Assembly: GCA_000830295.1 (NCBI GenBank)
Contig: CP010425.1
Coordinates: forward strand, 806,884-870,883
DNA: 64,000 nucleotides
Reading direction: 5' to 3'
From: an archaeon GW2011_AR15
GTDB lineage: Archaea; Nanobdellota; Nanobdellia; Woesearchaeales; GW2011-AR15
Shown here: in pieces, positions 18,809 through 62,961 of the stretch
Layout of the letters: each line of letters starts with the position of its first letter
Numbering within the stretch: the first letter of the stretch is position 1
Made by a program: the position numbers and the translations under genes
The notes under the pieces: model-generated
What the model saw: only the letters and a program-made list of their open reading frames with translations
The model's database searches: none
Told to the model about the DNA's origin: nothing

Positions 18809-18828
18809 ACCCCATGGAGGCGGGTTTA

Positions 18829-37782: not shown

Positions 37783-37882
37783 TATTTGAAGATATTTAAA
37801 TGTAAGTTACCAAGACTAATCGTAACTATGAAATAGTAACAAAAGCGAAAGATTTATATAGGAGTAGGAAATTAATATCTTC

Positions 37883-39016
37883 ATGAGTCTGGCAAATATT
37901 GTCAATAAAACGCTCTTGCTTGGAGTAGGGTTATCATTACTAGTGAATGCAGCATGTTCGCCTGTTCAGGCACAGAATAACCCAAGCGCTACAGAGACAA
38001 GACCTGCAGTCACAGCCACATACACTCCAACAGCTATCCCTACAAACACAGCTACAGCCACGCCTGAGCCAATTTATCAGGAAGTACAGGGCGTTAGGGT
38101 GCCTACAAATGTAACTATAGAAGAAGGTATTCCAATGATGATACAGGGAGAAGAGAAATTAATCAATTATTTCTGGTATGGGGAAGCAGGACAGAATTTT
38201 TCAAGAGACTTAGAGCTAAGCGGAAATGTGTATGTTATTGGAGATGTCAATGCGCAGAATGTAACTTGTGTGAATAGCCCACAGGTTTATGTTGATGCTA
38301 ATCATGATGTACAGGACCTCTATGCGCATTATGGAGAAGCACACCAAAGGTCAGGAATAAACAATGAATACGAAATCTTAGAAGGAGTTCATAGAGGAGA
38401 ACCTTTTTATGATGAAGAAAACAAAATATCTATGACTTTTAATGGGTTTCTTGATTGTATAGGGATTAACCAAGAATATCCAGTTTTACTAACATCAGAT
38501 GCAGCTGAGCCTACAAGATGGGACTGGAACTTTTTTCAATATAAAGGGATAATACAAAATGCGATTATTGAGTATGGCAGATCTGTTGAACCAGGAGATA
38601 ACACCGAAATAAGTTATAGTATAATTAGACACATGGGCGGAGGATCTATAGTTACATGGCATAATAAAAATGTTGTTATTAAGAATAACACACTCTACGA
38701 TACTAACCATGAGCTAATAGATATCCATCATTCAGATGTAGAGATTATAGAAAACGATATAGGGCCAGCAGTTAATGGCACTATAATGCGACCAGGCATA
38801 ATTTTAGATTTAGAAGAAGACGGATTTGTTACAATCTATGGGAATAAGATACATGATAATGGAATAGGGATATTTTTTCTCAGTCAACCTAGAGAGGTCC
38901 CAGACATTAGTGGAAATACTTTTTATAATAATTTAACTGATTTAGAGTATGAAGAGAATGGAATTATCCTTAATGAATTTTTAGAGGAGTGGATTACATC
39001 AAACTATTTTGAATAG
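37883..39016 (+). CDS. Secreted Thr/Pro-linker surface protein with a predicted right-handed beta-helix C-domain
   Basis: Signal peptide with a lipobox-like ...LLVNAACS. TATYTPTAIPTNTATATPEP linker. Repetitive N/G/I-rich segments. N-terminal ~150 aa nearly identical to the 59734-60891 product. Confidence 0.55.
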   Translation: MSLANIVNKTLLLGVGLSLLVNAACSPVQAQNNPSATETRPAVTATYTPTAIPTNTATATPEPIYQEVQGVRVPTNVTIEEGIPMMIQGEEKLINYFWYGEAGQNFSRDLELSGNVYVIGDVNAQNVTCVNSPQVYVDANHDVQDLYAHYGEAHQRSGINNEYEILEGVHRGEPFYDEENKISMTFNGFLDCIGINQEYPVLLTSDAAEPTRWDWNFFQYKGIIQNAIIEYGRSVEPGDNTEISYSIIRHMGGGSIVTWHNKNVVIKNNTLYDTNHELIDIHHSDVEIIENDIGPAVNGTIMRPGIILDLEEDGFVTIYGNKIHDNGIGIFFLSQPREVPDISGNTFYNNLTDLEYEENGIILNEFLEEWITSNYFE

Positions 39017-39038
39017 AAACTTAGTAAATCTTCTGATA

Positions 39039-40499
39039 TTATTTGTATAAATAATTCATTGCATGCCTCAACGTATACCCCAACCCATGCTCCCTCAAAC
39101 AATCAAAGAACAGTTTAACAGGCGTTTTATTCTTGTATCTCTGCTGCTTAATCTTGTGGTCATGCCATCTGCTATAGGCGTATCTCTGCGCTCTGGTTAA
39201 ATCCTCAGAACTCAGTGTTTCAGTCCTTATGACGCTCATTGTGTTGCCGTCATAGTTTGAGAAATTTTCATTCACGATCATTCCCTGCTTTTTGAGCATA
39301 TCATAAAACTTAGTGCCGGGGAAAGGTGTCATTATAGAGAACTGGACTGATTCAGGGTCAATGAAAAGAGCATAATTAACAGTCTGGTTAATTGTTTCTC
39401 TTGTTTCTCCTGGTAGGCCAAGAGTAAATGTGAGGTGCATCTTTATTCCCAGCTTTTTTGTAAGCTGCATGTTCCTTGTAGCAACTTTTAGATTAAGATT
39501 CTTTTCAGCAGCATCCACAATCTCCTGAACACCGGATTCAACTCCATATTTGACAGCAGCCAACCCTACTTCTTTTAATCTTACAAGAATTTCTTCATCT
39601 ACTATATCTGAGCGGCCCATGAATGCCCATGGAGTGTTCCAGTTCCTTTTCTTCAGCTCATCAGCGAGCTCAAGCATTCTTTTTTTCCCAATATTAAAGG
39701 TATCGTCGTCAAAATAGACTGATTTAAAGCCAAGCTTTTTGACACAATATTCCATTTCGTCTACAACTTCTTTTACATTCCTTGCCCTGTAATTCCTGCC
39801 GCTGTAGACAAGCTGAGGCCAGACGCAGAAAGTGCAAAGATAAGGGCATCCCCTTGTAGCTATCATCTGGACGCTTGGGAAAGGTATGCCACCTGGACAG
39901 TCATGGTATTTGTAAATTGGGAAGTCAACCCTGTCAGGCCATGGATATTCTTCTAATGGCTTTCTTTCTGTTCTTCTTTCATTCACGACAATTTTATTCT
40001 TATTCCTGAAAACCAGGCCAGGTATCTTATTAAGGGGTTTTTTGTTTTCCAGGTTCTGGACCAGTTCAAGCAGAGTAAACTCATATTCTCCTACAAGGGC
40101 AAAATCAATATTAGGGTTTTCTTCCATGAATTTTTCATTAAAGATATCCATATCAGGGCCGGCAATCGCAATCTTGCACACGGAAAAAGCTTTTATCTGC
40201 TCTATCAGCTCTAAATCATGCTTTAGGGAGGGAGTTGAAACCTCAACAAACAGCACATCAGGGTCAAATATCTTTAATTGCCTGAAAAATTCAGCATAAC
40301 TCATATTATCTGCAATTGCATCAATGGCTTTTACATTAACATTGTGTTTTTTTAATAAAGAAGTTGAATAGGCCAGGAAAAAAGGAAAAGGAAGATATCC
40401 TTCTTCTTCAGTTATCTTTAGATGGGGCCACCTGCTGCCTGCCCTGACACCCTGTCTACCCCCCACAGTCCATGGCATATTTGCCAGTAGGATTTTCAT
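39039..40499 (-). CDS. Cobalamin-binding (class B) radical SAM protein
   Basis: ATRGCPYLCTFCVWPQLVYSGRNYRAR. N-terminal MKILLANMPW...GSRWPHL class-B signature. Confidence 0.75.
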   Translation of the reverse strand: MKILLANMPWTVGGRQGVRAGSRWPHLKITEEEGYLPFPFFLAYSTSLLKKHNVNVKAIDAIADNMSYAEFFRQLKIFDPDVLFVEVSTPSLKHDLELIEQIKAFSVCKIAIAGPDMDIFNEKFMEENPNIDFALVGEYEFTLLELVQNLENKKPLNKIPGLVFRNKNKIVVNERRTERKPLEEYPWPDRVDFPIYKYHDCPGGIPFPSVQMIATRGCPYLCTFCVWPQLVYSGRNYRARNVKEVVDEMEYCVKKLGFKSVYFDDDTFNIGKKRMLELADELKKRNWNTPWAFMGRSDIVDEEILVRLKEVGLAAVKYGVESGVQEIVDAAEKNLNLKVATRNMQLTKKLGIKMHLTFTLGLPGETRETINQTVNYALFIDPESVQFSIMTPFPGTKFYDMLKKQGMIVNENFSNYDGNTMSVIRTETLSSEDLTRAQRYAYSRWHDHKIKQQRYKNKTPVKLFFDCLREHGLGYTLRHAMNYLYK

Positions 40500-40523
40500 A
40501 GAGGTAGTGAAAGAGAGAGAGTT

Positions 40524-41549
40524 TTAAATATGTTTCTGAATTATTTCTATTAATCTAGTTAATGGCTTCTTCCCAAGCTCTTTTTTTCTTTCCTGAACAT
40601 CATACAGACAGTTTACTAAGAAATGACAATTTTCTTTGCATGTGCTTGCTTTTTTTCTTGCATGAGAAAAATCTCCGTAATAGATCTCCATTGGACTATC
40701 TCTTATTATGTTCCCGGCAGGCATTTCTTTTATGCATCCATGAACGTCTCCTGTGTAAGAAACAGCAAAATTGTTGGTGCCAGCAGGGCATTTTATCTCC
40801 AAATCTGCTTCAGGATTGAGAAAATACTGTATATATTTATCAAATTGGGATGCAGGGTTGGATATTTTGGCACCCTCCAATTTTCTCCTTTTCAGATACT
40901 TCATAACCTGTATTATAACTTCCCTGTCTTTCGGCCATAATGGATCATTTTTCCACCATTGTTTGCCCCCATTATGAGTTAACACTTGATTGTATGCCTG
41001 GAAATGGATGTAATTAATTGGCAATTTTTCTGTTATCCACTCAACAAATTCAGGAATATCATATATGTTATCTTCTAAAATGATTGCTGAAATACCTATA
41101 CTTAATTCTGGTTTTAACTCTTTTAAGTAATTTATGGCTTTCACACATTTCTCGAATAAATCAGGTATACCTCTCATCCTATTATGTTTCTCAGCAAAAC
41201 TGTCTATAGAAAAATCAATATGGCTTATTCCTGCTTCTATAAGTCTCTCACAGTTCTTCTCTGAAAGCAAGCTTCCGTTTGTAACAATAGAAACAATAAT
41301 TCCAAGTTCTCTTATCCCCCTGATAACAGCATATAAATCTTTATACATGAACGGCTCTCCACCGCCGATACAGACATGCTCTACATCAGAAAATCTCTTA
41401 AGGTCTCTTGCGGTTCTGATCCAGTGCTCTGCAGGAAGTATTTTCTCATTATAAATCGGGTTTTCCCATATCTTACAGAAATCGCATCTGGCGTTACAAA
41501 CACCATTAATCTGGAAATCAACCCTTATTTTCGGTCTTTTTCTATCCAT
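40524..41549 (-). CDS. Radical SAM protein
   Basis: RVDFQINGVCNARCDFCKIWENP CxxxCxxC, CIGGGEPFMY. C-terminal Cys pairs (CPAGTNN...HGC, CKENCHFLVNC) suggest an auxiliary cluster. Confidence 0.65.
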   Translation of the reverse strand: MDRKRPKIRVDFQINGVCNARCDFCKIWENPIYNEKILPAEHWIRTARDLKRFSDVEHVCIGGGEPFMYKDLYAVIRGIRELGIIVSIVTNGSLLSEKNCERLIEAGISHIDFSIDSFAEKHNRMRGIPDLFEKCVKAINYLKELKPELSIGISAIILEDNIYDIPEFVEWITEKLPINYIHFQAYNQVLTHNGGKQWWKNDPLWPKDREVIIQVMKYLKRRKLEGAKISNPASQFDKYIQYFLNPEADLEIKCPAGTNNFAVSYTGDVHGCIKEMPAGNIIRDSPMEIYYGDFSHARKKASTCKENCHFLVNCLYDVQERKKELGKKPLTRLIEIIQKHI

Positions 41550-43247
41550 CTACCGCTCCACAAACCTCAGCAAGTCATAATTTAGTGCAGCATCTACCAT
41601 CATTGTGTTCTGGTCATGATTGTCACAGGAATCGCAATAATCGTCATATAACAATCTGCCATATAATGTGAGGGGGTTCTCTTTATGCATAATTAACCCG
41701 TCATTCCTGTATCTGGTATATGCATCTGAAAGCCAGACATCTTTCAGGCCAGAGCCGTCTTTCTCCAGCAGCCCAATCATCCTTGCACCGCAGCACATGA
41801 AAACCTCTCTTCTTAGTGATACATAAGTAAAGCACCAGCCGACATAGCACCCCTGGCTCAATAACCCTTTGTTTCCCCAGCTTCCGGAATTCTTATCATA
41901 ATGTTTTATCTCAAATTCAATGAAGGAGTGGAACTCAATCCCTATCTCTTTGCACACTTCTCTGGCCTTTTCGAGCTCTTTCTTCACAAAATCCATATCA
42001 CTTTTTTTCATATATAGCTTGTCCACGCTGAAATTCTCCAAATGGACAAGCTGATACCATATCTTGTCAGCTCCGATTTTCTTTGCATGATAGGCCATGT
42101 CAACGATTTCTGTAAAATTATACTGATTTATCACATAAAGTGCCTGTATAAACGGATGTCTTACATTATGATCTTTTTTTAACTGCGATAACTCTAAGAT
42201 ATTGTCCTCTATTTTCTTCATTAGCTTAAGTGGGGAATTTGGCCTTACAAGTTTCCATGATTTTTCAGATGCATAAGACAAAGAAACATTTATTGATTGA
42301 CAATTGCCATATTCCACAATCTGTTTTTTGTATAGATGAAGCATTGATCCGTTCGTCACCAAATCTAAGTTTAACCCCAAATCCTTTGTAATCTTTAATA
42401 TCTCACCAAACTGAGGATGCATTGTCGGTTCTGCTCCTCCAACAAGAAAAACATTTTCGGCGCCAAGCTCTTTTGCCTCTTTTAATGAATTCTCCACAAT
42501 TTCTATATCCAGCATCCCAAATAGCTCCGAGTGCTGGTCATCCCAGTATTTTTTATTCCATGGAGAGAATTTTCTGCAATAGACGCAGTCAAGGTTGCAC
42601 TTTCCGCTTAAATCCAGAAGAATATTTTCCGGCCCGCTAAAAACGTCTTTGACAACAGGACCTAATGTTCGCAGGAATGCGCCCATATTAAACCCTGTAC
42701 TTCTGGAGTTATTTTCTATGACTGAAAGCAGCTCGTCTAGCTGGCTGTCTATAATCCTGAATTCTATGCCCTGCTTTAGACAGGCCCTGCTTAAATTACT
42801 TAGATAGGCATAAAACCGGGATTTTATATCCACTAATGGGAGAATGTTAAATTTAGGGATGTCTGCATTTTCTCCTTTAATTTCCATAACCAGCCCTATT
42901 ATCCTATAAAGCCTGTGAAAGTTTGTTCTCCTTATTCCGATTATAATATGGTGCTCCTGATTCTTTGAGACGGCTTCTTTTAATTTATCTACTTGTTTGA
43001 AAAAATCATTTTCATCCAGATCAACACCCCATCTGTGGTTTTCTGATGTGTCGCCGCACAAGTAGATTAAAGGTATGTTTTTTGAACTTGGCAGAGGAAA
43101 CTTTCTATCCTCTATATTTTCATATTTTCCTATCACATCAAGCTTTTCAGAATATTTTATGATATCCGGATAGGTAGGTATTCCTTTTTTTGCAATCTCC
43201 CTGACTTCCGGAGGTATTATAATCTTACCCGAACCATAGATTCCCAT
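41550..43247 (-). CDS. Radical SAM/SPASM-like protein with a ~200-aa N-terminal extra domain
   Basis: LLDLSGKCNLDCVYCRKFSPWN (same CxxxCxxC-x-x-SP signature as the paralog family). C-terminal QGCYVGWCF...FMCCGARMIG. Stop abuts the start of the next radical SAM gene. Confidence 0.65.
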   Translation of the reverse strand: MGIYGSGKIIIPPEVREIAKKGIPTYPDIIKYSEKLDVIGKYENIEDRKFPLPSSKNIPLIYLCGDTSENHRWGVDLDENDFFKQVDKLKEAVSKNQEHHIIIGIRRTNFHRLYRIIGLVMEIKGENADIPKFNILPLVDIKSRFYAYLSNLSRACLKQGIEFRIIDSQLDELLSVIENNSRSTGFNMGAFLRTLGPVVKDVFSGPENILLDLSGKCNLDCVYCRKFSPWNKKYWDDQHSELFGMLDIEIVENSLKEAKELGAENVFLVGGAEPTMHPQFGEILKITKDLGLNLDLVTNGSMLHLYKKQIVEYGNCQSINVSLSYASEKSWKLVRPNSPLKLMKKIEDNILELSQLKKDHNVRHPFIQALYVINQYNFTEIVDMAYHAKKIGADKIWYQLVHLENFSVDKLYMKKSDMDFVKKELEKAREVCKEIGIEFHSFIEFEIKHYDKNSGSWGNKGLLSQGCYVGWCFTYVSLRREVFMCCGARMIGLLEKDGSGLKDVWLSDAYTRYRNDGLIMHKENPLTLYGRLLYDDYCDSCDNHDQNTMMVDAALNYDLLRFVER

Positions 43248-43272
43248 AGAAATAGAATAATATTCTGAGTTT

Positions 43273-44436
43273 TTATATATGTTTCTGTGATAAATCTCTC
43301 TTATACAATTTTAACAGCCTGTCAGCAACAATCTCCCACCTGAACATCCTCTCGGCCCTTTCTCTTGCCTTTTTCTCCAGTTTTTTCCTTAAGGCTTTGT
43401 TTTTCAATAGTTTCATTACCTTATCAGCCATTTCTTGATAGTTTCCTGGTTCATACAACAATCCTGCATCTCCAAGCATCCAGGGAATTTCTCCGACATT
43501 GCTTGCTACAATGGCCTTTCCGGATGCCATGTACTCAGCTATCTTTAAAGGGGATTTGCATCTCTGCTGCTTTGTATCGGCAAAACTGCCGACAACAACA
43601 TCTGCAGCAGCAAGATATTCATTAACTTCTTTTCCAACTGCAAATCCGGTAAAAATGATCTCTTTCTGCAAGCCCATTTTCATTACAATCATGTTAAGCC
43701 TTGGAAGGTCCTGCCCGCCTCCGACAATCATAAATTTCGCTTTTGGCATTTTTTTTAGTATTAATCTGGCAGAGCGTATAAACTGCTGGGCATACTGGGC
43801 GCCGTGAAGCTGCCCAAGATACAGCACAACAGGGTTTTTCTCAATTTTGTATTTTTTCCTTACATAAGCGCCGGGGTATTTTGGGCTGAACCTGTCCAGA
43901 TCAGCGCATACATTTGCCTTTACAATCCTGCTTTCAGGAAAGCCCATCTCTAAAACCATGCTTCTCAGCTCTTCGCTCGCTACAGACACAGAATCAACAA
44001 GCTTAGGCAGTAGCTTTTCCATCACATTAAGGTACCATCCGTAGATTCTTGAAGGCGGTGAGAACATGTATATGCCGTATTCCCAGTCATCCCAGTCATA
44101 GTGCACAGGCTTATTATTAACATAAGCAGAGAATATCGCAGGAATTGAGGCAATTGAAAAGCATTTCTGGAAATGAATCACATCGGCCCATTTCCCGAAT
44201 TCAGCCATTTTTTTCATATTTGAGAACAAATACCATTTGCTCCTGTTAAAAGGAATTGTTTCATATTCTGTTATTTTTTCCTTTAGTTTCCCTCTCTCTT
44301 TTCCAGAAAGTGGGAAATATACAAGCTTTACCCTATGGCCTTTTTTGACAAATTCATGGGCAATGGAAGTTATTCTTATTGTCCATGGCTCTGAGGCAGA
44401 GTAGATGTCGTGCGGGTGGATTATTAAAATATTCAT
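43273..44436 (-). CDS. GT4-family glycosyltransferase
   Basis: GT-B with C-terminal group-1 signature (...KSPLKIAEYMASGKAIVASNVGEIPWMLGDAGLLYEPGN...). Confidence 0.7.
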   Translation of the reverse strand: MNILIIHPHDIYSASEPWTIRITSIAHEFVKKGHRVKLVYFPLSGKERGKLKEKITEYETIPFNRSKWYLFSNMKKMAEFGKWADVIHFQKCFSIASIPAIFSAYVNNKPVHYDWDDWEYGIYMFSPPSRIYGWYLNVMEKLLPKLVDSVSVASEELRSMVLEMGFPESRIVKANVCADLDRFSPKYPGAYVRKKYKIEKNPVVLYLGQLHGAQYAQQFIRSARLILKKMPKAKFMIVGGGQDLPRLNMIVMKMGLQKEIIFTGFAVGKEVNEYLAAADVVVGSFADTKQQRCKSPLKIAEYMASGKAIVASNVGEIPWMLGDAGLLYEPGNYQEMADKVMKLLKNKALRKKLEKKARERAERMFRWEIVADRLLKLYKRDLSQKHI

Positions 44437-44476
44437 TTTATTTTTTAAGAATAACTATGGCTATATTTAAATATAG

Positions 44477-46120: not shown

Positions 46121-46233
46121 ATTTTATACTACTTTAGTTACCCCAGTTTAAATAAATTTTGTAATGAGAAGAGTTTATTAGTAAAGAATATAAATATAAA
46201 CTAAACATATGATAAATTTGTTGGGATACTGAA

Positions 46234-47910: not shown

Positions 47911-48084
47911 TTCTCAGGATCCCGGAAATATCTTATGCCTCTTTACCTTCTCCCAGGCAAGAAGAAACACATCAATAACAAGCGTTAAGCCTAATAGATA
48001 AATTAAGCCCAGCCATTTGAATATACTTTTCCTCATTTTTTGAGCAGAATAGAATTCAATATTTAAGTTTATCCTGATAAACAC

Positions 48085-50052
48085 TTATTTATTAATTTCC
48101 CACCTGCTGTCCAGATAAACAATGCCTAAATCTCTTATCTCCCTGCTCTTTACTTCAAACGAGTATCTCTTATCATGCAGGTCATAAGGCGTGAATGAAT
48201 TATACGGATGGACAGCAGCACTAACCAGGTAGGTCCCTTCCAGCAAAGGCAGCTTATCTATGATATAGGAGACGCTCCCTTTTCCCTTAACATAGGGGAT
48301 TTCAATATTGTGGAATTTAGTATTCGGCCCTGTTATCTGCGTTCCGTCATCTCCATGGATTGTTATGCCGAAAACAGGCTTTTCAACCTTCTTTTCAGCA
48401 TCAAACATAATTTTTATCTTGACCTGTTCCCCGGTATAAAACAACTCTTTATGCTCTTCTTTTGAATCCAGAAAAACCACATTTGTTATCCTGACAGGTC
48501 TCTGTTCTTTCTCATCATCCTCTTTTACTGATATTGATAATTTTGTTAATTCTTTCCTAAATTCAAGCAATCTCTCCAGTTCTTTTTCTATTTTTTTCTT
48601 TTCAGCCGGTTTTGCCTCTTCTAGCTCAAGCTTATGCACACTAATTAGTTCATGCAGCTCGTGCAGATGTGTTCTTATAATACCGGATATCTGGTTCTCG
48701 TTATCTTCAGGGTCAAAATGCGGGACAGTTTTGAGCATATTTTTGCATTCTTTTATTGAATGGATTATAGAAGCAAACTCAGAGTTATCTATCCTGAGTG
48801 AGATCAGGAAGTCAAACATATATTTCCGCAGATAGACCGCGCTTGGCTTGTCAACATGATTGAATCCCTCTTTGTATCTGGCAAACACTCTGGAAATAAC
48901 TTCTTCCCTTTCCTTTTCTGCTGTCTGCAGCTGGACTTCCATCTCCAGCAGCCTTATTCCCAGAAGTATCTCTTCAAACTCAAAAGATTTTTTTGTAACA
49001 GCCTGCTTTATAGTCAGCGCTTCCTGCGCCTGCTTCAGGTTCTCCAGCAATTCCTTTTTCTGCTGGGGAGAGAAATTCTTTACTTTGTTTTCCAGCCAGA
49101 CATAATTCTTGTCAGGAAGAATGATAAGCATGTCGCACAGGTCAATAAGCTGTGATCTTAAGGTTGCTTCCCGATATCCCAATGATTCCAGCTGCTTTTC
49201 CAGCCTGCTTCCCATGAAACTGTCTATAATAGGGAGATTGATTTTTCTTTTCAGATCTTTTCTTAATTTTTGAGTTTCATCTGAAACTGAAAGATATGAT
49301 TTGAAATTCTTCTTCAGCAAAAAGTAATTGTAAACCCTTTCTGATTTTTCGCTGTGATTCAGATAATCCAGTATAACTTTCTGCGCAACTCCCTGGCTTT
49401 TCACGACTCCGTGCTCAAGAAAAATTGCCCTGTCACAGATTTCCCTTACTGTTGACATGTCATGGCTCACAATGACCATTGTTTTTCCCTGCTCTTTCAT
49501 TATCCTTATCCTGTTCAGGCTTTTTTTCTGGAATTCCTCATCACCAACTGCAAGAATCTCATCTATCAGGATCACTTCAGGGTTATTTGACATTGCTATT
49601 GCAAAAGCCAGCCTGAGCTTCATGCCTGTGGAGTAATCTTTAAGCTTGACATTGATGAATTTTTCAAGCTGCGAGAAGTCTACTATCCTGCTGAAATTCT
49701 TCTTTATCTCAGAAGTGCTCATCCCAAGTATTGAGCCATATAAAAAGACATTTTCCTTCCCAGTCAGTTCCTCCCTGAACCCAGAGCCTGTATCAAGGAA
49801 AGTCAGCACTTTTCCGTTTACTTTTACATTTCCTTTTGTCGGAGACAAAATTCCCGCGATTACCTTGAGAAGGGTTGTTTTTCCTGAGCCATTCGGGCCG
49901 ATTATGCCAAGGCACTCCCCTTTTTTCACAGCTAAATTAATGTTCTTCAGGGCATAGAAATCTTCTTTTTCTGATTTTCCAATAAGCATGCTGTCTTTTT
50001 CATGGATCAGGTTAAATTTCTTAGACACGTTTTTCAGTTCTACAGTATTCAT
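48085..50052 (-). CDS. wzt: ABC transporter ATP-binding protein, Wzt/TagH-type polysaccharide exporter ATPase with a long C-terminal extension
   Basis: Walker A GIIGPNGSGKTTLLKVIAG, signature LSGGMK-like YSTGMKLRLAFA, Walker B ILIDEILAVGDEEF. ~400-aa C-terminal region with a coiled coil and a terminal beta-rich domain. 4-nt overlap with the Wzm gene. Confidence 0.75.
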   Translation of the reverse strand: MNTVELKNVSKKFNLIHEKDSMLIGKSEKEDFYALKNINLAVKKGECLGIIGPNGSGKTTLLKVIAGILSPTKGNVKVNGKVLTFLDTGSGFREELTGKENVFLYGSILGMSTSEIKKNFSRIVDFSQLEKFINVKLKDYSTGMKLRLAFAIAMSNNPEVILIDEILAVGDEEFQKKSLNRIRIMKEQGKTMVIVSHDMSTVREICDRAIFLEHGVVKSQGVAQKVILDYLNHSEKSERVYNYFLLKKNFKSYLSVSDETQKLRKDLKRKINLPIIDSFMGSRLEKQLESLGYREATLRSQLIDLCDMLIILPDKNYVWLENKVKNFSPQQKKELLENLKQAQEALTIKQAVTKKSFEFEEILLGIRLLEMEVQLQTAEKEREEVISRVFARYKEGFNHVDKPSAVYLRKYMFDFLISLRIDNSEFASIIHSIKECKNMLKTVPHFDPEDNENQISGIIRTHLHELHELISVHKLELEEAKPAEKKKIEKELERLLEFRKELTKLSISVKEDDEKEQRPVRITNVVFLDSKEEHKELFYTGEQVKIKIMFDAEKKVEKPVFGITIHGDDGTQITGPNTKFHNIEIPYVKGKGSVSYIIDKLPLLEGTYLVSAAVHPYNSFTPYDLHDKRYSFEVKSREIRDLGIVYLDSRWEINK

Positions 50053-50675: not shown

Positions 50676-50840
50676 TACATATAGTGTGACTAGCAGCAGT
50701 AGCGGGTTAAGTATTGACCAGACATAGCCGAAAAATGCATTCCTGTGCTTAAGCTTGAACTCATTTACAGCAAGCTGCCATATAAGCTCCAGATCCCTGA
50801 ATTTAACAAATGCTCTGATTGCACTCCCCCCGGCTTATGA

Positions 50841-52909: not shown

Positions 52910-54008
52910 GCATCATGCTTATGAAAAATACCGAGAAGACAGTCTGCACACCTATAATGAACACACTGAGGATGAACAGTATCCATGCAGTATTAAGTGT
53001 TGTGAAAAGCCTTTGAAAGAACAGGAAAAATCCGGCCAGACCTAAAACAACAAGCCCCAATCCAAGAATTATCCCTCGTTCCAGCGGCACCTTTTTTGCT
53101 ATAAAATCAATTAGTTTATCCTCTTTCTCAAACCCAGTATGTATCGCGTATATCTTTGAATAAAGCCCAAGGTTCATCAGCTGGTAGCCAAGCACTGAAA
53201 ATGACGAGCCAAGTAGGGACATGTAAATGCTAACGTCCTGTCCGCTGATAAATAATGTTCCTGCCATCATTGCTCCCAGAATAAAGAAACCGGAAAGCAG
53301 CAGTAAGAGACCGGGAATAAAGAAAAGATAGGTCGGGCTGAACATCAGCATGAACCTCAGATGCCTCCAGCCGTCACTAAAACTCTTTAATTTTGATTCG
53401 CCAATTCTTGGAGAATAGGTTATCGGGACTTCTGTTATATCAAGGTTATTCTTTGCTGCCTTTATGATCATCTCAGAGGCGAATTCCATGCCTGTTGTCT
53501 TAAGGTTAAGGAAGAAGAGATAGTCTTTCCTTATTGCCCTGAATCCTGAATGGGCATCGCTTACTTTTGTCCTGAAAAAAACATTTAATAAAAACGACAG
53601 CAATGGGTTTCCTATGTACTTATGATGCCAGGGCATTGCCCCTTTCTTGATATTGCCTTTAAGCCTGCTTCCTATAACAAGATCATGGCCGTAGTCCAGC
53701 TGCTCTATAAGCAGAGGTATTTCTGAAAAATCATAGGTGCCGTCAGCATCTCCTATAACAATGTAAGTCCCCTTTGCCTTGTGCATGGCTTCAATAATGG
53801 CTATCCCATATCCTTTCTTATTGTGCCTTACAAGCTTCACTCCATGCCTTTTTGCTATTTCAGGGGAGCTGTCTGTTGATGAGTCAGAGACAATAATCTC
53901 GTAATCCAGCCTTTCCCTGTCAAGGCTTTTCTTTATCTGCCTGATGCAGCCAGCTAAAGTCCTCTCCTCATCCCTGCAGGGCAGGATAACAGATACATTA
54001 ACCCCCAT
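52890..54008 (-). CDS. Polyprenyl-phosphate glycosyltransferase (GT2, DPM1/GtrB-like) with C-terminal TM helices
   Basis: VSVILPCRDEERTL...IIVSDSSTDSS...IVIGDADGTYD GT-A motifs, followed by 4 TM helices. Architecture of dolichol-phosphate sugar synthases. Confidence 0.7.
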   Translation of the reverse strand: MGVNVSVILPCRDEERTLAGCIRQIKKSLDRERLDYEIIVSDSSTDSSPEIAKRHGVKLVRHNKKGYGIAIIEAMHKAKGTYIVIGDADGTYDFSEIPLLIEQLDYGHDLVIGSRLKGNIKKGAMPWHHKYIGNPLLSFLLNVFFRTKVSDAHSGFRAIRKDYLFFLNLKTTGMEFASEMIIKAAKNNLDITEVPITYSPRIGESKLKSFSDGWRHLRFMLMFSPTYLFFIPGLLLLLSGFFILGAMMAGTLFISGQDVSIYMSLLGSSFSVLGYQLMNLGLYSKIYAIHTGFEKEDKLIDFIAKKVPLERGIILGLGLVVLGLAGFFLFFQRLFTTLNTAWILFILSVFIIGVQTVFSVFFISMMLVEKRD

Positions 54009-54060
54009 AGGCTCCTGGATTACCCCCTAATATATAAATGTTTGAGAAAAAATAAAACAG

Positions 54061-55044: not shown

Positions 55045-55062
55045 ATAACCACCAAATCTGCA

Positions 55063-55572
55063 TTATGTTATAAATTTATTCATATTAAGAAAACTGTGTA
55101 TTTCATTCTTCAATTCTACAGCATCGCTCTTCACCATGCCTGCAAAATCTTTTCCAGGAGAGCTGAACAGCATTTTGTCGAAAATTGTTTTTATGAAAAC
55201 ATATTCCGGCCTTGCATCCCACTTGCCTCTTATGTCCTGAAGCACAAATGCGTCAACAACAGCGCTCACCCTGCCTTTGTTGAGGGTGACTTCAATCCCG
55301 TCAATTTTTTTCTTGACATCCGTCATGTCCCTTATGTCAAGCCAGAGCTGCACTTCAAGCTTGTTTGATTTGACAGGCTTAAAAGGCCTCAGCCTCAGGC
55401 TTACCTGCCTGCCTGCCTTGCTTACCTCCTCCTTGTGGTTTATGACATGCTTTGTATATCCCTTTTTCTTGAAAAAAGAATCTATCATGACTACAAGTTC
55501 CGGAAAGCTGAATATCCCGGTGTAGCTTGTTGACATGCCCTGCGCAACTGTCTGTATTTCATCCCTTATCAT
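55063..55572 (-). CDS. Uncharacterised ~170-aa protein, tandem paralog A of 3
   Basis: Shares a pattern with the next two ORFs (N-terminal ...Y.GIFSF.ELV..ID.FF..K...K; C-terminal EL..E..SFLNMN.F). Family not recognised. Confidence 0.45.
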   Translation of the reverse strand: MIRDEIQTVAQGMSTSYTGIFSFPELVVMIDSFFKKKGYTKHVINHKEEVSKAGRQVSLRLRPFKPVKSNKLEVQLWLDIRDMTDVKKKIDGIEVTLNKGRVSAVVDAFVLQDIRGKWDARPEYVFIKTIFDKMLFSSPGKDFAGMVKSDAVELKNEIHSFLNMNKFIT

Positions 55573-55574
55573 TT

Positions 55575-56090
55575 TTATTTCTCATATAGGAACCTGTTGA
55601 GGTTGAGATAGCTGGAAAGCTCTGTTTTTAGTTCATTTATGACGTGTTTTGACACATTGTCCCAGTAAGCTATCCTTGCTCTTGCAAGGTATTTTTCATA
55701 TATGACCTTAAAGAGGAAATAGAAGGGCTTTGTGTCCGGGAAAAGGCCGAAATACTCAGTCTGGAGAAAAGCATCGAAAGTTATGGAAAGCCTTCCGTGC
55801 CCGGTCTTGACTTTGTTTCCGTCCACCTCAATTTCAGTTTCCTTGTATTCATTCACATAAATCCAGAGCCTTGTCTGCAGCCTGATATAGGAGTCTGTTT
55901 TTTTGTAATACTCTGTTTTCAGGTGGAAATACTTTCCCTTTGCAGTCTGGTATTCCTCATCAAACACAATTTTCTTATCAAAGGCTTTTGTCCTGAAGTA
56001 TTTGTCAATAATCCTGACTAATTCCCTTACGCTGAACAGTCCCTCATAAGTCAGCTGCTCTGCGACAACAGTGCTGTATATTTCAGTCAT
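55575..56090 (-). CDS. Uncharacterised ~170-aa protein, tandem paralog B of 3
   Basis: Similar length and motif pattern (YEGLFSVRELVRIIDKYFRTK..., ...ELKTELSSYLNLNRF) to 55063-55572. Confidence 0.45.
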   Translation of the reverse strand: MTEIYSTVVAEQLTYEGLFSVRELVRIIDKYFRTKAFDKKIVFDEEYQTAKGKYFHLKTEYYKKTDSYIRLQTRLWIYVNEYKETEIEVDGNKVKTGHGRLSITFDAFLQTEYFGLFPDTKPFYFLFKVIYEKYLARARIAYWDNVSKHVINELKTELSSYLNLNRFLYEK

Positions 56091-56118
56091 AGCTTACAAC
56101 ACCTATCATAGTTCTAAT

Positions 56119-56295
56119 ATGCATTTGTAGCACTCTCGGCATCAGCTGGTTACGCTCCCCTAAAAAATCAAAGATTTTTGGGGCCCCGAAAAACAAATCG
56201 TTTTTCGAGGGGGTTGGCACGCAAAACCCAGTGCTATTCAATTTCATTGAACAGCACGCTGTAAAGTTATTAGTAAGCATTTGTAGCACTCTCCA
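56119..56295. repeat. 18-19-nt direct repeat (agcatttgtagcactctc) duplicating the 3' end (ESATNAY-stop) of the 56270-56785 gene, flanking a ~140-bp insert with a hairpin
   Basis: Copies at 56119-56137 and 56277-56295. Both encode ESATNAY* on the minus strand. The insert contains the hairpin ccccgaaaaac-aaatc-gtttttcgaggggg at 56184-56213. Confidence 0.6.
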
Positions 56296-56785
56296 TATCC
56301 AGGAATTTTTTGACATCATTCATGAAGTCATATAGGTAATAATCGAGGTAGTCAAAATACTTCAGCAGGACTTCGTGGTAAAGCACTTTATCCACAAGGA
56401 ATTTTTCAATTTTCTTCAGTCCAGGGGATTTTTCAAAATCACCGTCATAATCAAGTATAAACCCCCCGTTTATTATGATTTTCATCCTCCCTTCTGTGAG
56501 ATGCATCACTTTGTCGTTTCTCAAAACTTCAACAGGCTTTGCCTCCCATATCCAGACCTCAGGCAGCAGCATAAGCATTGCGTAGAAGCTAATCTTCTTT
56601 TTGCCCACCATCTTATGGATCCTGTAAGGTGGGTAGTCCCATATCTTTGTTTCATAGAAGTCAAAATCATGGTCTTTTATCCACTTGGCCATGTATTTAT
56701 ACAGGCCGTCAAAGTCAAAGATTCCCTTGTACTTGATAGTCCTGTGAAACCCGTATTTACTGTAATCTGCAAGTCCCGTGTACAT
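56270..56785 (-). CDS. Uncharacterised ~170-aa protein, tandem paralog C of 3 (more divergent)
   Basis: Same size and position in the array. YKGIFDFDGLYKYMAKWIKD parallels the GIF-F..L motif of A and B. Confidence 0.4.
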   Translation of the reverse strand: MYTGLADYSKYGFHRTIKYKGIFDFDGLYKYMAKWIKDHDFDFYETKIWDYPPYRIHKMVGKKKISFYAMLMLLPEVWIWEAKPVEVLRNDKVMHLTEGRMKIIINGGFILDYDGDFEKSPGLKKIEKFLVDKVLYHEVLLKYFDYLDYYLYDFMNDVKKFLDMESATNAY

Positions 56786-56903
56786 TTCAGTATATAAATA
56801 AGTATACTGGTTTATTAAATTTTTCTTTTATAGGGAAATTTAATATTCAAAAATCTCCTGATTTTTGTTTTATATAATTTTTGCTTTATCTTCGTGAATA
56901 CTA

Positions 56904-57082
56904 GAATCAATGGTAGGTTGTCCTGCTTCCAAGCTGATATCTTGTCATCTGCCTTATACCGCATCAAGCCTTTAATAAGCCTTGAGGGAAACATATTAAG
57001 GACTACATTACTGCGTAAGTAGTCCGAAGAATCAATGATAAGTTGTCCTGCTTCCAAGCTGATATCTTGTCATCTGCCTTAT
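56904..57082. repeat. ~55-nt direct repeat duplicating the 3' end of the 57032-57577 gene, flanking a ~70-bp insert with a hairpin
   Basis: Copies at 56904-56958 and 57027-57082 (gaatcaatgGTAgGTTGTCCTGCTTCCAAGCTGATATCTTGTCATCTGCCTTATA, 2 mismatches). The insert contains the inverted repeat ggactac-attactgcgtaa-gtagtcc at 57000-57025. Confidence 0.65.
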
Positions 57083-57577
57083 ATCCATCTCGCCTTTTTC
57101 AGGATGGAGTATGTGCAGGACTTCGTGAGTGAGCACTTCCTGGTATTCGCTTCCCATTAGGGAATCCAGGATTTCTATGTAATTGCTGTGGATGAAAGCC
57201 CTGCCGAGGACGCCGTTCCCAAGAGTATTTTGTGAGACCCTCCTGACAATAACGCCTGAAGGTGCAAAAAGACCATAATCTTTTTCTTCCTGCTTCTCGC
57301 TTATTGCATATTCAGTCCAGACCGGCTCTCTCTTATCCTGTTTTGTATAAACATAATAAAAGTCTCTGCTTACCTCGTAAAGAAGTATATTGTGCTTTGG
57401 ATCTGGCAGGTCAACAAGCAGTACTTGCTCTTCAAGTTCCTTTATGCTGATGTTCCTGTTTTCAGGGATAAAAACAAATGCCTTTTTCTCTTCAGTCTGC
57501 TTTGCAAGGCTCTCGAGTATTTCATCAAGAGAGAATTTACTTTGTTTGCCTGAAAATACTCTCTCTTTGAGCTTCAT
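57032..57577 (-). CDS. Putative zinc metalloprotease-like protein (HExxH motif)
   Basis: HEVLHILHPEKGE (HExxH...E) near the C-terminus. 181 aa. Start abuts the stop of the upstream NTase gene. Confidence 0.4.
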   Translation of the reverse strand: MKLKERVFSGKQSKFSLDEILESLAKQTEEKKAFVFIPENRNISIKELEEQVLLVDLPDPKHNILLYEVSRDFYYVYTKQDKREPVWTEYAISEKQEEKDYGLFAPSGVIVRRVSQNTLGNGVLGRAFIHSNYIEILDSLMGSEYQEVLTHEVLHILHPEKGEMDIRQMTRYQLGSRTTYH

Positions 57578-57578
57578 T

Positions 57579-59501
57579 TCACTGGTGGATCATAACCTCT
57601 ACATCCTTGCCAAAGAGTTCTCTGAGGTTTTCAAAGATAGGCTGCTTTATGAAAACCCTGGTAGGTATGGACTGGTCTGCCAGAGCCTTTTCAAGCTCCT
57701 GTATTGAACTTCCACTTATATTCTCCAGCGCACCTTCGGCAGTTATATCTGCTTTTGATATCTGCTTTTCATCAGCATCAAGGTCATGCGTTATGAAAGC
57801 GGTTTTTCCCAGGAGCACCACTTCACCAAAAACATCACCGTATTTTACCCTGATAGTGGCTTTCTCTATCTCTCTTCCTCTCTTCCTCTGTATATGCTCA
57901 ATCAGGAATTTGTGCAGGTCCTTGCTTATCTTCGTGACATTATTAACATCTGTCCTTGTAAGCTTGGAATTGTCATAGTCATCTTTTGCCTTCACGATTT
58001 CCTTTATCATCCTGAGGAACTTATGAGGGACTTTCCCAGTGTCTATTATCTCATGCTCAAATGTCCTGAGAACTTCATCTTCCTTGATTTTCTCAACACC
58101 CTCAATCCTCAGGATATCCCTTACCAGTGTTATTGTGTTCTCATATGTGGTAACAAGGGACTCTTCTTCCTTTATTTTGTCAATCTGCTTGAACAGCCTC
58201 TTGATTCTTTTCAGGAATTTATCTGCATCGCCAAGAAGCTCATCAACCTCTTTTCCGGTAAGCTCTTTCTTTGTCTGGTGCTCAAGCTCTTTCCTGACTT
58301 TTATGTTGTTTTCAAGTATCTTGATATACTCTTCCTCCAGAAGCTTTTCTTTTTTCACGAAAATTTCTCTCATCAGATCCGGAGTTTCCTTTGGAGTCGG
58401 AGGAGACACTCCATAAAGCATCAGAGCAGCCTGCGATGGGGTCAGGATAGCATAGAAAGTATCCTCCATGCCGATAGAACTCAGCTTGTACTTTACCCTT
58501 GAGACCAGCTGCTCTCCTGAACTCATGAAAAGGTCAATTGCTTCAGGGCTTGGCTTTACTTTTCCCATCTGCAGAAGCTGCTTCCACGGCATGAATATTC
58601 CCCTGTCATAGAATGGGATGCCATCCCTCAGGAAAGTGAATATGATTGGATTGGCCTCTTTTATGTTGTCCCAGAAGTCTGTCAGTATATAGACCTGGAT
58701 GTTCAGCTTGTTCTTAATCCTTGTAAGCTCACCTGCCTCGAGCCCCATCCCTATAATGATGGCCCTCAGCTTGTCCTTAAGCTCCACTCTTGTCATTTTC
58801 TTGACATCAGTGTCATCTATCACAACAAATACATCGATGTCAGAATCAGGCTTTGCTTTGCCCTGGACAAGGCTTCCTGCAAGAACATAGGTTACAATAT
58901 ATTTTTCAAACTTCTTCAGCACCATCTGCTTGTGTATTTCTGCTATCTTAATTGCTGCAAGCATCCCTGTATCATATACTATCCCCCCTGAAGCTATTTT
59001 GCCCAGAACTTCATATTTTGCATCATAGCAGCTCTGCCACACATCACTCAGGATAAGGGTTTCAGGAATCATTGAGGGGTTGATATCTTTTGCAATCTTT
59101 TCGATTATCTGGCTGAGCTTGCTTTTCAGTTCATATTTTGACATTTTTTTGCTGTCAGAATCATCCACAAGCACCATAACAGAAATCTCGCTCTCCTCGG
59201 CAGCTGGCTGATGCGGCACTGGCACAGCCTTGTTCATAGGAACAGGTGATAATCCGGACAGCATGCCAGGCAGAGCTGGCTGAGGAAACTTCTGCTTTGG
59301 CTGGGGAGGCAGCAGGCTTATCCCCATTATGTATTTGTCAAATTTTGCAATTACTTCTTTCTTAAACCTGTCAACTTCTTTTTTTATCTTCTCAAGCTTC
59401 TCTTTTGCTTCCTTGCTCAGATTTGGTATTTTATCCAGATTGAATTCGTCATTTTCCTCTTCTTTGACCTTTTCCTGTTCTTTTTTTCCTTTTGCTGCCA
59501 T
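57579..59501 (-). CDS. Pol-beta-superfamily nucleotidyltransferase-domain protein with K/E-rich and Pro-rich N-terminus and internally repeated segments
   Basis: LAGSLVQGKAKPDSDIDVFVVIDDTD matches the GS-x9-13-DxD NTase motif. An upstream degenerate repeat (VMVLVDDSDSKKMSKYELKSKL vs VFVVIDDTDVKKMTRVELKDKL). Coiled-coil-rich C-half. Confidence 0.5.
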   Translation of the reverse strand: MAAKGKKEQEKVKEEENDEFNLDKIPNLSKEAKEKLEKIKKEVDRFKKEVIAKFDKYIMGISLLPPQPKQKFPQPALPGMLSGLSPVPMNKAVPVPHQPAAEESEISVMVLVDDSDSKKMSKYELKSKLSQIIEKIAKDINPSMIPETLILSDVWQSCYDAKYEVLGKIASGGIVYDTGMLAAIKIAEIHKQMVLKKFEKYIVTYVLAGSLVQGKAKPDSDIDVFVVIDDTDVKKMTRVELKDKLRAIIIGMGLEAGELTRIKNKLNIQVYILTDFWDNIKEANPIIFTFLRDGIPFYDRGIFMPWKQLLQMGKVKPSPEAIDLFMSSGEQLVSRVKYKLSSIGMEDTFYAILTPSQAALMLYGVSPPTPKETPDLMREIFVKKEKLLEEEYIKILENNIKVRKELEHQTKKELTGKEVDELLGDADKFLKRIKRLFKQIDKIKEEESLVTTYENTITLVRDILRIEGVEKIKEDEVLRTFEHEIIDTGKVPHKFLRMIKEIVKAKDDYDNSKLTRTDVNNVTKISKDLHKFLIEHIQRKRGREIEKATIRVKYGDVFGEVVLLGKTAFITHDLDADEKQISKADITAEGALENISGSSIQELEKALADQSIPTRVFIKQPIFENLRELFGKDVEVMIHQ

Positions 59502-59733
59502 AAGCTCACCTTGTGAAAGTTACTATTTATTCAAGGTAGCCGGACTCAATATATAAATAAAATTGTAGTTTAGCCTATAGAAGTGTGACATAAATGACAA
59601 TTGGAAGTACAGGTATAAGAATAAAACGCCTGTTAAGCTGTTTTTGGATTGTTTGAAGGAGCATGGGTTTGGTTATACGGTTAGGCATACATACAAGTAT
59701 TTAAAAAATAGAGAAGGTATTTTGGTATAAAAT

Positions 59734-60891
59734 CTATGGGATTCCTGTTCCATCTATGAATCTATCCAAACTACTATAAGAAACTGGTATTTCTGGGCCT
59801 TCAAATATATATTCATACATTATTTCGTATCCTGAAGGAATATTAATAAATGTATTAGATTCTGTTATTTGAGTTTCTCTTGGAATACCAAGAAAAACTA
59901 TTGCCCCTCTATTATCATATGCCCAACTACAATTTTCAAATGAGTTATTATCTAGATATGGTGAGCCTCTACTTATATTAACACAACTACTTGAATTTGG
60001 TCCTAAGGTATTATCAATTAAATTAACTGTGCTGCCATTTAAGGCAATTAACTCGTGCCCTTTATCATGTTCATTGTAAATACTATTACCTATAATATCT
60101 CCTTCCAAAACATCATATAAACAAAGTGCACATTCACCAACATTTCTTAGTGTACTATAACTTATCTCACCTCTCTTTTCAAAATTAAGATACCTATAGT
60201 ATTCTATTGTTGCATGTGAGATAGTGCCTTGAACAAAAGTAAAAAAATTCCAATCATAAATCATAGGATTTTCAGAAGCTGAAGTGATTAAAACTTGGTT
60301 TTCTTCCGTACCACTACAATCAAGATTACCTAATATCTGGATAGACACATGGTTCTTTTCATCTCTAAATGGTTCCCCTTTATGAACACCATCAAGATTT
60401 TCATATTCGTTGTTTATTCCAGATCTTTCATATGCTTCACCGTAATGTGCATATAAATCATGGACATCATTATTCGCATCAACATAAACCTGCGGGCTAT
60501 CCACGCAGGTAACGTTCTGTGCATTGACATCCCCTATAACATACACATTTCCGCTTAGCTCTAAATCTCTTGAAAAATTCTGTCCTGCTTCCCCATACCA
60601 GAAATAGTTGATTAATTTCTCTTCTCCCTGTATCATCATGGGAATAGGCTCTGCTAATGTGATATTTGTAGGCACCCTGACACCCTGTACTTCCTGGTAA
60701 ACCGGCTCAGGCGTGGCTGTAGGCGTATTTGTAGGGATTGTAGTTGGAGTGTATGTAGCTGTAATTGCCGGCCTGTCTGTTTGAGTTATGTTCGGACTGG
60801 CCTGCGCCTGGCCAGAACATGCTGAGGTAACTAATAGTGATAACCCGGCTCCAAATAATAGCGTTTTTTGAATAATTTTTGTTAAGCTCAT
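59734..60891 (-). CDS. Secreted Thr/Pro-linker beta-helix surface protein (paralog of 37883-39016, inverted orientation)
   Basis: N-terminal ~150 aa ~90% identical to the 37883 product, including TATYTPTTIPTNTPTATPEP and EEKLINYFWYGEAGQNFSRDLELSGNVYVIGDVNAQNVTC. Underlying DNA ~85% identical over ~450 bp. Confidence 0.55.
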   Translation of the reverse strand: MSLTKIIQKTLLFGAGLSLLVTSACSGQAQASPNITQTDRPAITATYTPTTIPTNTPTATPEPVYQEVQGVRVPTNITLAEPIPMMIQGEEKLINYFWYGEAGQNFSRDLELSGNVYVIGDVNAQNVTCVDSPQVYVDANNDVHDLYAHYGEAYERSGINNEYENLDGVHKGEPFRDEKNHVSIQILGNLDCSGTEENQVLITSASENPMIYDWNFFTFVQGTISHATIEYYRYLNFEKRGEISYSTLRNVGECALCLYDVLEGDIIGNSIYNEHDKGHELIALNGSTVNLIDNTLGPNSSSCVNISRGSPYLDNNSFENCSWAYDNRGAIVFLGIPRETQITESNTFINIPSGYEIMYEYIFEGPEIPVSYSSLDRFIDGTGIP

Positions 60892-60926
60892 AGTGAGAAG
60901 TGTTAAAAAGTTATATTTAAAGGTAA

Positions 60927-62818: not shown

Positions 62819-62835
62819 TTTCCCTGAAAAATAAA

Positions 62836-62961
62836 TGCGGGTGAGGGGATTCGAGCCCCCGACCTCAGGATTTCTAGCGCGCATGAAATATCATCGCCTA
62901 ACGGCTCATCACTCATAAGCATATGAGTCCTGCGCTATAGACCAAGCTAAGCTACACCCGC
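62836..62961 (-). tRNA. tRNA-Met: tRNA with CAT anticodon (elongator Met or Ile2-type) carrying a ~50-nt intron at the canonical 37/38 position
   Basis: Minus-strand sequence GCGGGTG-TA-GCT..AGC-CAGGA-CTCATA-[intron TGCTTATGAGTGATGAGCC...GCTAGAA]-A-TCCTG-AGGTC-GGGGGCTCGAATCCCCT-CACCCGC-A. Acceptor, anticodon and T stems pair. G1:C72 argues against an initiator. CCA is not encoded. Confidence 0.8.

Follow-up and report, generated by a model that had tools for sequence, protein, structure and literature searches.

Inverted paralogues around a glycan gene cluster

We analyzed a 64,000-nucleotide stretch of the genome of archaeon GW2011_AR15 (contig CP010425.1, positions 806,884 to 870,883 of the forward strand; hereafter the window, whose own coordinates are used throughout), in which two genes for predicted beta-helix surface proteins lie in opposite orientations on either side of a gene cluster for glycan biosynthesis and export. 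Copy A (37883-39016, plus strand) encodes a predicted secreted protein or putative lipoprotein of 377 amino acids with a predicted right-handed beta-helix, and its open reading frame (ORF) corresponds exactly to NCBI protein AJF61841.1 (QT06_C0001G1013). Copy B (59734-60891, minus strand; 385 amino acids) is an exact match of AJF61861.1 (QT06_C0001G1033), and both copies also match database entries named Candidatus Woesearchaeota. The two proteins share 58% identity over 354 residues (BLASTP, E = 1e-117), and are thus inverted paralogues, as an earlier note made from the DNA sequence alone had proposed for these same two ORFs. The genes are arranged tail-to-tail, with their variable 3' parts pointing inward; the stop codons are 20.7 kb apart, with 23 genes between them.

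A repeat search of the 64-kb window reported one long inverted pair, here called I1. Its left arm (38000-38433, plus strand) lies within the 5' half of copy A and its right arm (60341-60774, minus strand; placed by alignment as well) within that of copy B; the arms are 434 nt long, 84% complementary and separated by 21,907 nt, and they span codons 40-184 of both genes. Gapped DNA identity over the first 450-551 nt is 80%. At the protein level, residues 1-183 are 80% identical, residues 65-185 are 85% identical and residues 186-350 are 36% identical; in the C-terminal halves the DNA is 42-57% identical per 60-nt window. The figures given earlier for the 5' part (~85% DNA and ~90% protein identity) were essentially right, if slightly generous compared to the 80-84% and 80-85% measured here, and the divergence of the C-terminal halves had been described correctly. 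Three features had been missed: a near-perfect tract of 104 nt inside I1 (38135-38238, plus strand, against 60536-60639) with two mismatches and perfect blocks of 32, 41 and 29 nt, duplicated TATA boxes, and a second inverted repeat, I2 (39043-39145 and 59606-59708; 103 nt, 82%).

Homology between the copies begins ~35 nt upstream of the start codons. A TATA-box-like element, TTTATATA, precedes copy A (37853-37860, plus strand), and its counterpart TTTAAATA precedes copy B (60914-60921, minus strand); in both cases the last base of the element lies 23 nt before the first base of the ATG, a spacing that is identical in the orthologue from the Hainich aquifer discussed below. Both copies are full-length, each with its own start codon and TATA box, and from these sequence features they are probably transcribed independently, as leaderless mRNAs. 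Directly upstream of copy B lies a gene (60927-61532, minus strand) for a 201-residue protein with a Fis-type HTH_8 domain (E = 2.4e-11), which is unusual in an archaeon; the TATA box of copy B begins a few nucleotides past the stop codon of this gene, which sits at the inversion boundary described in the next section.

The cargo listed in the earlier note was borne out by Pfam. The genes between the two copies encode three radical SAM proteins (rSAMs), a GT4 glycosyltransferase, a carbamoyltransferase, an ABC-2/Wzt exporter (Wzm/Wzt), further GT2, GT4 and GT2 proteins, and an SIS/PGI-type isomerase, together with a 640-residue protein carrying an MntA/Pol-beta-type nucleotidyltransferase domain, four small uncharacterised proteins, and a multi-pass membrane protein without a Pfam match, which the earlier note had labeled 'GT-C'. 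The gene for the 640-residue protein is adjoined by three tandem genes of 169-171 codons (55063-56785, minus strand) without a match in Pfam, PHROGs or NCBIfam. Between two of the 171-residue paralogues, a contig of a metagenome-assembled genome (L011; GCA_013331675.1, DUFY01000008.1) is devoid of ~133 nt of the window (56138-56270), and the site is flanked by N's, pointing to either an indel or an assembly gap. A direct repeat of 56 nt (56903-56958 and 57028-57083; 96%) duplicates the 3' end of a 181-codon gene with an HExxH motif (57032-57577), with the copy located 125 nt downstream, as a small remnant of a segmental duplication.

GC skew, which the earlier note had offered as a check on structural change, was uninformative. 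It is uniformly negative (-0.097 in the left flank, -0.109 in the interior and -0.124 in the right flank), and 91% of the coding bases of the interior are on the same (minus) strand as 86-100% of those in the flanks. Skew thus tracks the coding strand and flips together with the genes, and carries no information on inversion history.

Both orientations of the bracketed segment

A homology search with copy A identified a protein of 385 residues (P0002) that is identical to A in its N-terminal part and to B thereafter, and listing of all members of both 90% clusters identified the reciprocal chimera (P0010), which is B-type first and then A-type. Both proteins stem from the same ENA assembly, ERZ27254732. 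The first is encoded on a contig of 30,307 nt (k141_562686, here L007), in which the normal left flank, with its sulfatase and SPASM-rSAM genes, precedes the chimera and the genes for the nucleotidyltransferase, small proteins, isomerase, GT2, GT4, GT2, Wzm and Wzt follow it, all reversed. The second is encoded on a contig of 35,430 nt (k141_333252, here L008), where the normal right flank (HIT, MiaB-like and HTH_8 genes) precedes the chimera and the genes for the B12-binding rSAM, two more rSAMs and GT4 follow it.

In a four-way alignment, the sites that are diagnostic for A or B switch parent exactly once in each contig, between 38134 and 38167. Together with an exact-match scan, this places the crossover in a 32-nt block of perfect identity at codons 85-95 of copy A (38135-38166, plus strand), whose partner in copy B occupies 60608-60639 on the minus strand. 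The segment present in both orientations (38167-60607) therefore measures 22,441 nt between the crossover blocks, and holds the 3' parts of A and B as well as the 23 intervening genes. Outside the repeat, both contigs are 99.96-100% identical to the window: L007 shows one mismatch in 10,100 nt of left flank and four in 10,458 nt of inverted interior, and L008 shows none in either 3,209 nt of right flank or 4,835 nt of interior. By contig arithmetic the two end at about positions 43433 and 43417, respectively, so that they jointly tile the inverted segment. As assembled, the contigs show a single reciprocal inversion of ~22.4 kb on a background that otherwise differs very little from the window. 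The earlier proposal that the inverted copies can mediate inversion of the segment is thus corroborated, with both reciprocal junctions in one assembly and at least 20 other contigs in the orientation of the window.

The chimeric proteins by themselves would also be compatible with gene conversion, in which the 5' ends of A and B are exchanged while the interior keeps its orientation. This explanation is refuted by the context of the junctions, and we give it practically no weight: L007 runs from the A-side flank through the B-type 3' part into the reversed array from the nucleotidyltransferase gene to Wzt, and L008 from the B-side flank through the A-type 3' part into the B12-rSAM array.

Metagenome mis-assembly, in which the chimeric contigs would be false joins through the repeat and no inversion would have taken place, must also be considered, since L007 and L008 are two consensus contigs of one MEGAHIT-style assembly (as their k141 names suggest), and a repeat that is crossed during assembly can yield reciprocal false joins. 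However, perfect matches between A and B reach at most 41 nt, and the block with the crossover is 32 nt long, both far under k = 141, and with the private single-nucleotide polymorphisms (SNPs) of L008 only ~23 nt are common to both contigs at the junction; mis-assembly is thus very improbable. In addition, both contigs are 30-35 kb in length and are clean single-switch mosaics free of other anomalies, and coverage drop-outs would be unable to make both reciprocal joins together.

The private SNPs of L008 lie at contig positions 10253-10312 (window ~38158-38216), where seven changes, all synonymous, are found within ~60 nt of the crossover; at three of these sites L008 agrees with the Hainich orthologue. 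Because A and B do not differ here, a simple exchange between them cannot create the SNPs, which most likely stem from a diverged strain allele of copy A that predated the inversion or was involved in it. If the SNP tract predates the inversion, perfect identity at the crossover is merely ~23 nt. The same SNPs could be taken to mean that the flipped arrangement itself was imported, that is, that DNA from a diverged sister strain, already inverted, recombined into the AR15 background; short divergent tracts are indeed common in these populations. An imported block of 22 kb would nevertheless be expected to differ more from the window than the remaining 28 kb of L007 and L008 do, at 99.96-100% identity, and we regard import as quite unlikely.

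Among all members of both 90% clusters, exact copy A is found on 21 contigs and exact copy B on 22, and each chimera on one. Any contig with an intact A or B protein necessarily carries a parental junction, and so about one assembled case in 22 shows the flip; these are consensus contigs, in which minority orientations are not visible. The inversion is a real, rarely assembled polymorphism.

Contigs of this population, assembled from aquifer metagenomes (JGI and ENA), match the window at 99.9-100% identity, and differ from it almost solely in short, dense SNP clusters, such as 13 SNPs within 97 nt in L002 (31923-32019); others are located at 48700-48959 (L001, L002 and L003), 43864-43875 (L004) and 53787-53811 (L009). 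This pattern is expected for short recombination imports, or for ectopic conversion from paralogues such as the sulfatase genes, and suggests that recombination is active in the population. Two further irregularities were noted among these contigs. In one (L005; ANAN16-1 SAMN03202998 scaffold_5047), an initial stretch of 534 nt is unrelated to the window and codes for another protein; it joins the window at 36410 inside a sulfatase gene (35338-36615), reflecting either a further structural variant of the island or an erroneous scaffold join. Copy A itself is disrupted in two independent assemblies at ~38400-38430, the boundary between conserved and variable parts near the GVHRGEPFYDE motif, by a 14-nt deletion in one (L029; JGI 3300025309) and by an insertion of ~32 nt with a 23-nt duplication in the other (L030; ANAN16-1 SAMN03202999); these breaks could be real pseudogenisation or local assembly errors.

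Age and make-up of the duplicated unit

Nei-Gojobori analysis of A versus B gave a proportion of synonymous differences (pS) of 0.53, a synonymous distance (dS) of 0.92 and a ratio of nonsynonymous to synonymous distances (dN/dS) of 0.13 for codons 1-185, and a saturated pS of 0.72, a dS of 2.33 and a dN/dS of 0.30 (dN 0.71) for codons 186-377. A recent duplication was rejected on these values, with dS ~0.9 in the conserved half and saturation elsewhere; judged by its sequence divergence, the pair is old. The I1 repeat persists because the N-terminal half is under strong purifying selection. The suggestion in the earlier note that the repeats mark a duplication-driven acquisition could not be upheld, given the age of the paralogues and the conservation of the context of copy A in a relative from the Hainich aquifer, where rSAM, beta-helix and B12-rSAM genes follow each other as in the window.

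Within the N-terminal half, synonymous identity is locally raised at codons 85-120, in the 104-nt tract that includes the crossover block (binomial P ~3e-6 against the average pS of 0.53). In codons 100-120, 18 of 20 codons agree between the two copies, versus 8-9 of 15 in the comparison with the Hainich orthologue. The tract is thus probably a footprint of gene conversion, as read from the sequence, with constraint at the nucleotide level as an alternative.

The relationships of the N- and C-terminal domains are discordant among the beta-helix relatives. Copy A is 85% identical to B in the N-domain and 36% in the C-domain; the corresponding values are 64% and 38% for the Hainich orthologue, and 35% and 44% for the protein P0004. 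In the Hainich relative, moreover, the flanking rSAM proteins are 77-83% identical to those of AR15, and the intervening beta-helix protein just 47%. The Hainich comparison and the domain identities indicate that the beta-helix body is a module, rapidly evolving or mosaic, that is attached to a conserved N-terminal part. Two scans of species-representative genomes, one using the family alignment and one using copy A, turned up no relative. One scan of metagenome contigs yielded only the Hainich orthologue and short contigs bearing relatives of 32-35% identity, whose loci all lack rSAM neighbours; it gave no further AR15 loci. Within the window, tblastn of A and B against the six-frame translation matched only the two genes, with no silent cassettes and no truncated or promoterless copies.

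The I2 repeat extends the duplicated unit beyond the beta-helix gene. Its left arm (39043-39145, minus strand) consists of the last ~31 codons of an intact, convergent B12-binding rSAM gene (39039-40499), and its right arm (59606-59708, plus strand), downstream of copy B, is what remains, in frame, of a B12-rSAM paralogue that has been lost (RYKNKTPVKLFLDCLKEHGFGYTVRH...). The 18 differences between the arms are split 4/2/12 by codon position (chi-square P = 0.009), indicating that the B12-rSAM on the B side remained functional through most of its history before being truncated. Hence at least the promoter, the beta-helix gene and the B12-rSAM gene were duplicated together. We note that a 124-kb scaffold (L012; ANAN16-1 SAMN03842431 scaffold_337) ends at position 59583, 23 nt past the I2 remnant, which may reflect assembly-graph ambiguity, and hence heterogeneity, at this second inverted repeat.

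The N-termini of the two proteins, MSLANIVNKTLLLGVGLSLLVNAAC and ...LLVTSAC, consist of a putative signal sequence with a hydrophobic core that ends in A-C (LVNAAC and LVTSAC), and a Thr/Pro-rich linker. The putative lipobox is without the canonical Leu at -3, and a PF01790 Lgt-like gene lies ~9 kb to the right. The beta-helix label of the earlier note stands for copy A, which scores 33.7 bits for PF13229 Beta_helix (cut-off 25.9) and 33.4 bits for PF05048 NosD (cut-off 23.6); copy B, at 18.8 bits, is below the cut-off, and carries the label solely through its homology to A. The AF2 model of copy A (pLDDT 63.5, pTM 0.67) is all-beta from residue 65, with stacked strands at residues 183-289 that are reminiscent of a beta-solenoid. 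Its Foldseek neighbours (tailspikes, polysaccharide lyases, epimerases and adhesins) are all beta-helix proteins, with matches that are not significant (E >= 0.035, TM <= 0.32), and neither catalytic residues nor a substrate could be assigned from the model and Foldseek. The family is tiny, with 77 representative clusters in a set of 1.84 billion proteins, and matches mostly to residues ~106-355. It is a reasonable inference that the gene products are tethered surface proteins which bind or cleave glycans.

Elsewhere in the window, the left half (10055-23130 and 25067-29636) is dense in radical SAM genes, paralogues of the B12-binding and SPASM types, with repeat families spaced 3,985 and 1,439 nt, and also holds a 1,433-residue ORF, sulfatases, an arylsulfotransferase and a PAPS-reductase-like gene; it is an unusually large surface or glycan-modification island for a genome of 1.16 Mb. 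To the right, an intron-containing tRNA gene of 126 nt (62836-62961, minus strand; Rfam RF00005, 51.7 bits), missed by ARAGORN, is overlapped by the first ~22 codons of a MiaB-like ORF of 442 residues (61556-62884), whose true start is probably MKKIFIK, giving the 420 residues called on other contigs.

Probable recombination pathway and relation to known systems

Searches with Pfam, PHROGs and NCBIfam revealed no recombinase, integrase or invertase among the window ORFs tested, nor among the annotated flanking genes ~10 kb beyond. With no such gene, with promoters of their own on both copies, and with a repeat of 84% identity whose two genes are 20.7 kb apart, RadA-type recombination is favoured over programmed phase variation. 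The latter, which the earlier note had raised as one outcome of the inverted arrangement, also fits poorly with an inverted state seen in about one of 22 contig sets. Since both copies are complete and carry their own promoter elements, nothing is switched on or off by the inversion.

The explanation that we favor, with a probability of roughly 0.7, is that old inverted paralogues recombine by general homologous recombination and occasionally invert the segment between them. An ancient inverted duplication would have comprised the promoter, the beta-helix gene and at least the adjacent B12-rSAM gene. Purifying selection on the N-terminal half, together with local gene conversion, would then have preserved a repeat of 434 nt and 84% identity with perfect blocks of 29-41 nt, in which general homologous recombination, presumably of the RadA type, would occasionally cross over. 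Each such crossover would invert the 22.4-kb glycan-biosynthesis and export segment and generate two intact reciprocal chimeric genes, A5'/B3' and B5'/A3', in which the promoter, signal peptide, Thr/Pro linker and first ~85 residues of one copy would be joined to the divergent beta-helix body of the other. The event would be rare rather than a frequent switch, and its phenotypic effect small or neutral; on paper the consequence of a flip is modest, as both chimeric genes are intact, and the glycan cluster is no longer co-oriented with its flanks.

Several points weigh against this explanation. A repeat of 84% identity with perfect blocks of 23-41 nt is near the lower limit for efficient homologous recombination, and other parts of the 1.16-Mb genome could encode a recombinase. 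The tail-to-tail genes, the 5'-proximal repeat, the constant N-terminal and variable C-terminal parts, and the association of surface and glycan genes resemble programmed gene-altering inversions (PMC9881135). The seven private SNPs of L008 are left unexplained by a simple exchange between A and B, and the middle join of L007 and L008, near 43.42 kb, is unassembled. Finally, the evidence consists of a single inversion event in a consensus assembly, which gives neither its frequency nor its reversibility.

The resemblance to programmed inversions calls for a direct comparison. A programmed inversion of this gene-altering, reversible kind would require a site-specific recombinase, encoded elsewhere, that recognises a core site within the 32-nt block; inversion would exchange the variable beta-helix bodies of two expression sites under different regulation, and turn the glycan cluster around. 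The design of the locus, with tail-to-tail genes, a 5'-proximal repeat and a constant-N/variable-C layout, is that of known gene-altering inversions (PMC9881135), and variation occurs within the species. Both junctions fall in one 32-nt block, exactly where the 104-nt near-perfect tract is located, the cargo is of surface and glycan genes, and a gene for a Fis-type (HTH_8) DNA-binding protein lies directly upstream of copy B. However, no recombinase was found in the window or ~10 kb beyond, the distance of 20.7 kb between coding sequences and the absence of asymmetry are the opposite of the predictive attributes in PMC9881135, the repeat is only 84% identical, and the flipped state is found in one assembly of about 22. 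The crossover in a 32-nt perfect block beside others of 41 and 29 nt is compatible with site-specificity, but it is one event only, and as its two junctions stem from the same reciprocal exchange, their common position is not independent evidence. We therefore consider a programmed inversion unlikely.

A stronger version of this idea is a true archaeal device for antigenic variation, in which a distant or unrecognised recombinase would reversibly reassort hypervariable beta-helix bodies between two expression sites. One of these sites could be that divergent from the rSAM cluster, and the other that behind the HTH_8 regulator gene. If so, a 20-kb glycan synthesis and export cluster would be flipped and the surface of a DPANN episymbiont changed in a single step, by a kind of switch that would have no described precedent in DPANN archaea; we judge this reading to be rather unlikely.

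DPANN archaea are uncultured, and what little is inferred of their encounters with hosts and viruses derives from surface proteins and glycans. The locus described here is a concrete case of structural variation at a DPANN surface and glycan site, mapped to within 32 nt. One near-clonal Woesearchaeote population holds a 22-kb glycan cluster both ways, and the exchange makes two new chimeric surface proteins. With four defined junction sequences, the frequency and reversibility of the inversion become measurable in existing aquifer time-series reads. Even if it merely reflects rare homologous recombination, the locus is an example of how diverged paralogues (84% identity, perfect blocks of 23-41 nt) rearrange small archaeal genomes.

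A literature search on GW2011_AR15 retrieved no paper on this locus. Work on chromosomal inversions in Archaea is scarce (bioRxiv 10.1101/2023.03.11.532203), and a survey of gene-altering inversions in bacteria deferred archaea to future work (PMC9881135). Programmed gene-altering inversions include the phage Mu G and P1 C segments, Min-type tail-fibre switches, shufflons and the hsdS invertons of Type I restriction-modification systems (PMC9881135, PMC7672463). As in those systems, the crossover at the AR15 locus lies in coding sequence at a border between constant 5' and variable 3' parts, with the variable parts tail-to-tail inside the segment; alternative intact proteins result, the targets are surface or specificity proteins, and rearrangement is seen within the species. 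Programmed inversions have an invertase of their own close by, repeats that are short and near-perfect, a short invertible segment and one copy that lacks a promoter, whereas here no recombinase was found, the repeat is long and diverged, the cargo amounts to 20.7 kb, and both copies have a promoter and start codon. Of the attributes employed in PMC9881135, the AR15 locus thus shows the orientation and the intra-species variation, and departs from them in the long distance between coding sequences, in the lack of asymmetry and in showing no neighbouring recombinase in the genes searched.

A second comparison is with inversion isomers, in which recombination between long inverted repeats likewise leaves the segment between them in either orientation in one species. 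Such isomers arise in archaea and bacteria from large inverted repeats, such as those of Halobacterium pNRC100, and from inversions mediated by insertion sequences or rRNA operons. The repeats involved are mobile elements, rRNA operons or near-identical large repeats, unlike the diverged coding paralogues described here, whose recombination alters two proteins.

The inverted paralogues tufA and tufB of Salmonella undergo both inversion and gene conversion (PMC6735719, PMC5485169). As in that system, two full-length, probably independently expressed inverted paralogues recombine at the AR15 locus, invert the interval between them and probably homogenise parts of their sequences, and by analogy the process here would depend on RecA/RadA; the inverted state likewise occurs, with one orientation dominating in nature. 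The tuf genes are ~99% identical and lie hundreds of kb apart in a bacterium, whereas here the repeat is 84% identical, the distance is 22 kb, and the paralogues encode fast-evolving surface proteins of a DPANN archaeon, so that new chimeric proteins are formed. The locus belongs to this known class of recombination between inverted paralogues, and its added interest lies in its occurrence in a DPANN archaeon, where surface-protein modules are reshuffled and a glycan cluster is flipped.

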